A stretch of DNA of 1,058 nt, taken from Escherichia coli. Its GTDB lineage: Bacteria > Pseudomonadota > Gammaproteobacteria > Enterobacterales > Enterobacteriaceae. The notes below the pieces were generated by a model. The model was given only the letters and a program-made list of their open reading frames with translations. It was not told where the DNA came from and ran no database searches. Location of the stretch: the NCBI RefSeq assembly GCF_003334335.1, contig NZ_QOWQ01000126.1. One strand, written 5' to 3'. Of this stretch, positions 897-973 are shown piece by piece. Every line of letters begins with the position of its first letter. The first letter of the stretch is position 1. The translations under genes were made by a program, and so were the position numbers.

Positions 897-973
897 TGGA
901 CCGCCATCGAGGACTCGAACCCCGCGCAGCCAGCTTCGAAGGCTGGCGCTCTATCCCGATGAGCTAATGGCGG
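897..973 (-). tRNA. argN: tRNA-Arg with anticodon UCG, 77 nt including encoded CCA.
   Basis: Reverse complement reads CCGCCAU-UA-GCUC-AUCGGGAUA-GAGC-G-CCAGC-CUUCGAA-GCUGG-CUGCG-CGGGG-UUCGAGU-CCUCG-AUGGCGG-U-CCA. All stems pair (7/4/5/5 bp), anticodon loop CUUCGAA gives U34 C35 G36. A at the expected position 20 of the D loop and C35 are arginine identity elements. Unusual C1-G72 and U73. Symbol by analogy only. Confidence 0.75.

Follow-up and report, generated by a model that had tools for sequence, protein, structure and literature searches.

The acceptor end of the tRNA-Arg(UCG) gene in the DNA analysed here (the window, a stretch of 1,058 nucleotides of Escherichia coli contig NZ_QOWQ01000126.1, assembly GCF_003334335.1) is real, invariant among phage copies and absent from chromosomal tRNA-Arg(UCG) genes, yet it is part of a scaffold that is shared by several phage tRNAs. 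The C1-G72 first pair and the discriminator base U73 are, as far as the compared sequences tell, a lineage trait of the top half of a phage tRNA, and the sharing of this invariant half among paralogues with different anticodon arms is a mildly new point. The gene itself is the already-known accessory gene argN and not a new one; as a discovery it matters little, having been annotated in Shiga-toxin phages for decades and as tRNA-Arg in more than 1000 E. coli genomes. If U73 alters charging or nuclease sensitivity, this tRNA would be a small piece in the picture of temperate phages tuning host translation around toxin and moron expression.

The argN gene

On the minus strand, ARAGORN called a 77-nt tRNA-Arg(tcg) with the exact limits 897-973. 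The same segment matches the Rfam tRNA model RF00005 with 55.1 bits (E=6.6e-11, against a gathering score of 29), no non-canonical pair being flagged by cmscan, and its assignment as an argN homologue is further supported by identity to copies in Stx2 phages. The RNA reads CCGCCAU UA GCUC AUCGGGAUA GAGC G CCAGC CUUCGAA GCUGG in its 5' part and CUGCG CGGGG UUCGAGU CCUCG AUGGCGG U CCA after the anticodon arm, and the CCA end is encoded (897-899). All 21 stem pairs are standard, with a single G.U pair in the T stem; the D loop has 9 nt with A20 inside it, and the T-loop is normal. The cloverleaf is the minimum-free-energy fold, with a folding-energy z-score of -1.1, a measure that says little for tRNAs, as usual. 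The stems of 7/4/5/5 bp, U8, A14, G18G19, U33, T54-Psi55-C56 and A58 are those of an elongator tRNA, and the copy in the window has none of the truncation, broken stems or lost conserved loop nucleotides that characterise pseudogenes and fragments, unlike some of the other copies. An earlier note, made from the sequence alone, had read a C1-G72 pair, U73 and the anticodon UCG from this gene. ARAGORN, Rfam and the reading of the strand agree that these features are genuine; no software returned another anticodon or a pseudogene call, and the NCBI annotation is also tRNA-Arg.

Matches to the Rfam families Plastid-ycf2, YrlA and Six3os1 in the window were rejected as chance, because they lie below their gathering scores and overlap with tRNA sequence or its antisense. 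The match to the Plastid-ycf2 5'UTR RNA (985-1058 on the plus strand, antisense to the ileZ gene; 36 bits against a gathering score of 65.7) most likely reflects nothing more than tRNA-like sequence in that family.

Cassette and prophage context

The argN gene is flanked on the same strand by two further tRNA genes, so that the order is Ile2(CAU)-Arg(UCG)-Arg(UCU) with short spacers. The first gene, an ileZ homologue (983..1058, minus strand; Rfam 72.5 bits), is called as Met (cat) by ARAGORN, annotated as tRNA-Ile by RefSeq and named ileZ in AP012536; its CAU anticodon is presumably lysidine-modified. The third, an argO homologue (807..883, minus strand), is identified as tRNA-Arg(UCU) by ARAGORN, Rfam (65.7 bits) and alignment. 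Between the CCA of ileZ and C1 of argN lies a 9-nt spacer (974..982, minus strand; UAUCACAUA), which is only 1 nt long in phage 2851 and PPompW, and 13 nt separate the CCA of argN from G1 of argO (884..896, minus strand). The earlier note had also drawn attention to A27.C43 mismatches in both flanking tRNAs as a common pattern. The mismatches are real and flagged by cmscan, and in ileZ A27.C43 is invariant (7/7 aligned copies), but the one in argO (position 43 being 840 in the window) is private to this copy, six homologous phage copies having A27-U43, and the idea of a pattern is not supported. The argO copies of VT2-Sakai and TL-2011c have G37 for A37.

The cassette ends in an intrinsic-terminator-like hairpin 15 nt after argO (769..792, minus strand, the hairpin itself at 792-775; GGCTCGC-TTTT-GCGGGCC followed by TTTTTT), which is invariant in an alignment of seven phages. 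On the other side, 9 nt separate ileZ from a sigma-70-like site, TTGAAG-17-TATTAT, which lies 10-38 nt past the right end of the window (L001:21068-21096). In the seven-phage alignment the -35 and -10 elements are kept as TTGMAR-17-TATTAT, and the conservation starts exactly at the -35 hexamer, the flanks further upstream being unrelated in phage 2851 and PPompW. Because the conservation among unrelated flanks begins at this hexamer, the arrangement suggests a self-contained and mobile cassette of a promoter, three tRNAs and a terminator, in which promoter and terminator are recognised by consensus matches. In IMG/VR, Ile2(CAU)-Arg(UCG)-Arg(UCU) occurs at 46 loci, more than any other cluster type; it and Ile2-Lys(UUU)-Thr-Gly are the two dominant cassette types.

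E. coli JE86-ST05 and other strains contain the window in their chromosomes at 100% identity, and the 41-kb context is a lambdoid prophage adjoining yccA. Along the strand of the tRNAs the genes run from the integrase through exo, cI/cro-like genes, O/P, RusA, the antiterminator Q, a small ORF and a methyltransferase to the three tRNAs, and then through tciA, tciB, an SASA/NanS-like esterase, holin and lysozyme to the terminase, head and tail genes. According to the annotations of JE86-ST05 and Stx2a_1447, the cassette lies between Q and the moron/lysis region. The slot that holds stx2AB in Shiga-toxin phages is filled here by tciA (205-636, minus strand), encoding a TerB-family 'tellurite resistance' protein (phrog_632), and tciB (44-208, minus strand), encoding a 54-aa DUF3927 protein (phrog_1470), the stop and start of which overlap by 4 nt. 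In phage JLK-2012 the tciA/tciB pair stands behind another tRNA set, annotated Asn-Thr-Gly and called Asn and Gly by ARAGORN. At the end of Q, and overlapping it, is a pR'-like promoter, with a strong terminator hairpin about 55 nt further on (L001:22704-22732, 22635-22649); this is the classical lambdoid pR'-tR' arrangement after Q, and about 1.6 kb separate it from the tRNAs downstream. Immediately before the cassette lies a gene annotated as a DNA methyltransferase (L001:21099-22157); for the Stx phage PA8, methylation of 16S rRNA is reported for an MT-A70 methyltransferase in complex with a partner protein (PMC10810198).

In Stx2-converting phages the same three tRNAs, annotated ileZ, argN and argO, are located between the methylase and stx2A, and identity to AP012536, where the genes are named, is 95.3% over the 301-nt cassette. 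The argN genes of 933W, VT2-Sakai and Stx2a_1447 share with that of the window the gene order, the spacing, the place downstream of Q, the C1-G72/U73/CCA end and the promoter-like and terminator flanks; the moron slot differs, stx2AB standing where the window prophage has tciA/tciB. For the tRNA alone, identity to the VT2-Sakai copy is 98.7%, and some Stx2a phages have copies that match it fully (100%); the one difference from the Stx2-phage argN lies in the D loop (U20a vs C). A megablast search with the 77 nt detected argN in 1061 of 5426 complete E. coli genomes (~20%), with 1-4 copies in each; nearly all are on the chromosome and carry the RefSeq label tRNA-Arg. The proposed horizontal acquisition by way of a phage is borne out by the prophage context, by this accessory distribution and by the homology to the argN of Stx2 phages. 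The annotation argN is said to go back to 1999, to the genome papers on 933W and VT2-Sakai, the former reportedly naming the three genes and proposing them as a supply of rare tRNAs for Stx and other phage genes. Open papers merely list 'Met, Arg, Arg' tRNAs upstream of stx2, and no discussion of the acceptor end of phage tRNA-Arg(UCG)/argN was found in the open full-text literature.

Acceptor end and arginine identity

The identity set of E. coli ArgRS has been given as A20, C35, N36 and A/G73, and U73 as the discriminator of Cys and Gly tRNAs (PMC9976931). The identity is carried mainly by A20, C35 and G/U36, with A20 the strongest and A/G73 a further element. The argN tRNA has A20, C35 and G36, and of the arginine determinants only A/G73 is absent, U73 standing in its place. 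Position 20 was assigned by aligning the D loop of argN with the AGCUGGAUA loop of core tRNA-Arg.

Viral copies were sampled by scanning IMG/VR with a string covering the D stem and anticodon arm (AGAGCRYCAGCCTTCGAAGCTGG), which left the acceptor end free. The scan yielded 150 argN copies with 34 distinct sequences; as the IMG/VR samples are anchored on patterns and contain many near-identical prophages, such numbers count copies and not independent events. C1, G72 and U73 are present in all 150, A20 is near-invariant in their alignment, and the 3' end is CCA in 142 copies and TCA in 8. When the same string was scanned over one genome per bacterial species, 27 loci matched, and the C1-G72/U73 combination was confined to the Escherichia-type entries among them. 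The remaining 23 come from other phyla (Acidobacteria, Bacilli, Planctomycetota and further MAGs). They are tRNA-Arg(UCG) genes of the ordinary kind, which share with argN the D-stem 3' strand and anticodon arm, AGAGCRYCAGCCUUCGAAGCUGG, as well as A20, whereas their acceptor and T stems differ and all 23 have G1-C72 with A73 or G73.

The core tRNA-Arg(ICG) of E. coli, encoded by argQ/V/Y/Z and present as tRNA-Arg(ACG) in all 5426 genomes (median 4 copies), is like argN an arginine isoacceptor of the CGN box, with a D-loop architecture that includes A20 and an anticodon loop equal to that of argN except at position 34. Its own features are G1-C72, A73 and A34 (modified to inosine), where argN has C1-G72, U73 and U34. 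With the core tRNA-Arg(ACG) and the 23 chromosomal tRNA-Arg(UCG) genes of other phyla agreeing on G1-C72 and A/G73, the description of the argN end as atypical is upheld. The tRNA is therefore made of two parts of different character: its D arm and anticodon arm, the bottom half, are those of a canonical bacterial tRNA-Arg(UCG), and its acceptor stem, discriminator and T arm, the top half, are peculiar and fixed in the phage lineage.

The C1-G72 pair is a hallmark of tRNA-Pro, and it is the one feature that argN has in common with the tRNA-Pro of E. coli, in which it is combined with G35, G36 and A73; the NGG anticodons and A73 of tRNA-Pro are different from those of argN, and the acceptor sequence is unrelated. 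An origin of the scaffold from tRNA-Pro was rejected, the D and anticodon arms being those of canonical Arg(UCG) and the single copy with a UGG anticodon being one base away from the UCG majority.

The top half with other anticodon arms

Relatives of the top half were collected by BLAST and by scanning IMG/VR again, this time with the T arm and the 3' acceptor strand as anchor. In related phages the top half and the D arm of argN also bear UUU, UCU, UGG, GCG and Leu-like arms (examples are L007:301-376, L005:301-377, L011:301-377, L053 and L031/L034 of IMG/VR). The UCU form, in Stx2d_112808, is separated from UCG by a single change, G36 to U, and the UGG form ('Pro'), in phage TL-2011c, by a change of C35 to G relative to the UCG majority; the latter accounts for the 'Met-Pro-Arg' triplet noted in PMC7366253. 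Further occupants of the slot have a GCG anticodon or are 82-nt Leu(CAG)-like tRNAs, and some are no longer recognisable as tRNA. A more distant relative is a UUG tRNA with G73 in the Yersinia phage YeP2.

The UUU form ('Lys') belongs to PPompW-type prophages, where it occupies the position directly after ileZ, as argN does, in a cassette of Ile2-Lys-Thr-Gly. This tRNA shares with argN the acceptor stem (CCGCCAY/RUGGCGG), U73, CCA, the D arm and the T arm, whereas its anticodon arm is UCAAC-CCUUUAA-GUUGA. In all 46 of its IMG/VR copies position 33 is C, where nearly all tRNAs have U, and the T stem contains an A51.C63 mismatch. Over the 51 distinct members of the family 97.1% of the cells of the cloverleaf pair, and at 7-66, 27-43 and 30-40 the UCG and UUU subfamilies differ by double changes that are compensatory. 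An interpretation of C1-G72/U73 as an adaptation specific to arginine is not supported in view of these paralogues: as the same acceptor/T-arm half bears other anticodons, it is a phage scaffold and not an arginine-specific device.

Codon usage

To our knowledge, the anticodon UCG is absent from the core tRNA set of E. coli, and the earlier note had proposed that the phage tRNA supplies decoding capacity that the host lacks, with enrichment of rare codons expected in the neighbouring genes. Codon usage was compared between 52 CDS of the prophage (10,312 codons) and 40 host CDS of the same strain (14,403 codons). The codons read by the flanking tRNAs are strongly enriched: AGA makes up 9.4% of the arginine codons in the prophage vs 1.7% in the host, AGG 8.9% vs 1.4%, and AUA 12.0% vs 4.1% of the isoleucine codons. 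CGG is strongly enriched as well (20.2% vs 5.7%), but CGA only weakly (8.3% vs 5.5%; OR 1.56, p=0.04); taken together, CGA and CGG account for 28.5% of the arginine codons in the prophage and 11.2% in the 40 host genes. Codons for which the cassette has no tRNA, namely GGA, ACA and TCA, are also enriched, so that much of the signal is general weak codon adaptation of lambdoid phages (see PMC4631060).

The adjacent tciA and tciB contain no CGA at all, and stx2A, in which 15 of 20 isoleucine codons are AUA and 8 of 24 arginine codons are AGA or AGG, contains only 2. Nor is CGA more frequent where argN is present, with 8.5% in Arg(UCG) loci vs 10.0% in loci with the UUU paralogue, a comparison in which the loci are redundant, the ORFs are proxies and p-values have no meaning. 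The expected enrichment of rare codons is found for AGA, AGG and AUA and is weak for CGA; of the proposal that a lacking decoding capacity is supplied, the absence of UCG from the core set stands, while CGA is enriched weakly and without any link to the presence of the tRNA. The rare-codon rationale fits ileZ and argO well and argN weakly, unless U34 also reads the strongly enriched CGG.

Proposed function and alternative explanations

What does this tRNA do for the phage? We consider it likely that argN encodes a functional elongator tRNA, the middle gene of a compact prophage cassette. The cassette would have a sigma-70-type promoter of its own and would in addition be read by Q-modified polymerase coming from pR', since with a pR'/tR'-like pair directly after Q such polymerase should also run through the tRNAs into the moron and lysis genes. 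The three tRNAs, whose CCA ends are encoded, would be freed by RNase P and 3' exonucleases. The host ArgRS would then charge argN by means of A20, C35 and G36, all of which lie in the D/anticodon half, and U73 in place of A/G73 would lower the charging, probably at some cost in efficiency, without abolishing it. The host reads CGA through the I34.A wobble of tRNA-Arg(ICG). The phage tRNA would read CGA by Watson-Crick pairing, and CGG probably by U34 wobble, and would in this way bypass that poor wobble, the sole route to CGA in the host. Against a functional tRNA speaks U73 itself, a departure from an arginine identity element that is made by none of the 23 chromosomal Arg(UCG) genes.

The same departure invites the thought that another synthetase with Pro-, Cys- or Gly-like preferences charges argN, so that CGA is recoded. 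On the one hand, the first pair is that of tRNA-Pro, U73 is the discriminator of Cys and Gly tRNAs (PMC9976931), and the TL-2011c tRNA has the same scaffold with a proline anticodon. On the other hand, ProRS, CysRS and GlyRS each depend on particular anticodon bases that argN lacks, whereas it has the strongest determinants of ArgRS, and its D and anticodon arms equal those of bona fide tRNA-Arg(UCG); we regard recoding as extremely improbable. The non-host character of the acceptor end could also be related to defence, the phage tRNA replacing or outlasting host tRNA-Arg species that have been cleaved or inactivated by toxins directed at tRNAs, for example anticodon nucleases of the colicin D type or tRNases of abortive infection. 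There is a general precedent in lytic phages, whose tRNAs can overcome defences that cleave tRNA, and the occurrence of one invariant non-host top half in several slot-2 tRNAs of different anticodons would be in line with it. However, the anticodon loop CUUCGAA is the canonical loop of bacterial Arg(UCG), so there are no escape mutations in argN; argN has no linked gene for a nuclease, an inhibitor or a defence system, and PADLOC reported nothing significant among the proteins of the downstream neighbours; and the phage is temperate with only three tRNAs, all of them for rare codons. A spare tRNA against such toxins is highly unlikely. Not much better, and still very doubtful, are the prospects of the top half being a dedicated phage tRNA 'chassis' with exchangeable arms, whose non-host end has a specific reason to persist beyond mere descent; that reason may be, for example, altered recognition by a processing enzyme, a synthetase or a tRNA-targeting nuclease.

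A near-neutral passenger is a rather unlikely explanation, though one that several of the observations would suit. The tRNA in slot 2 would be poorly charged or dispensable, with little role in decoding, and argN would persist because it is wedged between the useful ileZ (AUA) and argO (AGA/AGG) in a mobile promoter-terminator module. Its U73 is off the ArgRS consensus, CGA use is unassociated with its presence, and stx2A, rich in AUA and AGA/AGG, makes hardly any use of CGA. Among 158 UCG copies, 40 (~25%) have structural defects or a TCA 3' end; the anticodon has drifted by single bases to UCU, UGG and GCG, and in some loci the anticodon arm has been replaced or the tRNA is no longer detected. 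What speaks against a passenger is that the other 118 copies (75%), that of the window included, are fully canonical, that C1, G72, U73 and the near-invariant A20 are kept in the 150 viral copies, and that substitutions in the stems mostly preserve pairing, some of them being compensatory. The defective copies and the single-base anticodon changes suggest that selection on slot 2 is not strong; slot 2 is clearly less constrained than a core tRNA, and this, like the weak enrichment of CGA, tells against the functional elongator tRNA that we favour.

Notable among the defective UCG copies is a sublineage of 24 in which A6 faces A67, the T stem has an A.C pair and position 58 is G, in some members together with the TCA end; this sublineage and the 8 copies with TCA resemble decaying genes (IMG/VR loci such as L133, L136, L141 and L154). 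A change of another kind is found in phage 2851 (L006:301-377) and PPompW (L007:301-376), where the 3' acceptor strand reads GUGGUGG and creates G3.U70, the identity pair of alanine. This raises the possibility of mischarging with Ala in these two phages; the argN copy of the window has G3-C70.
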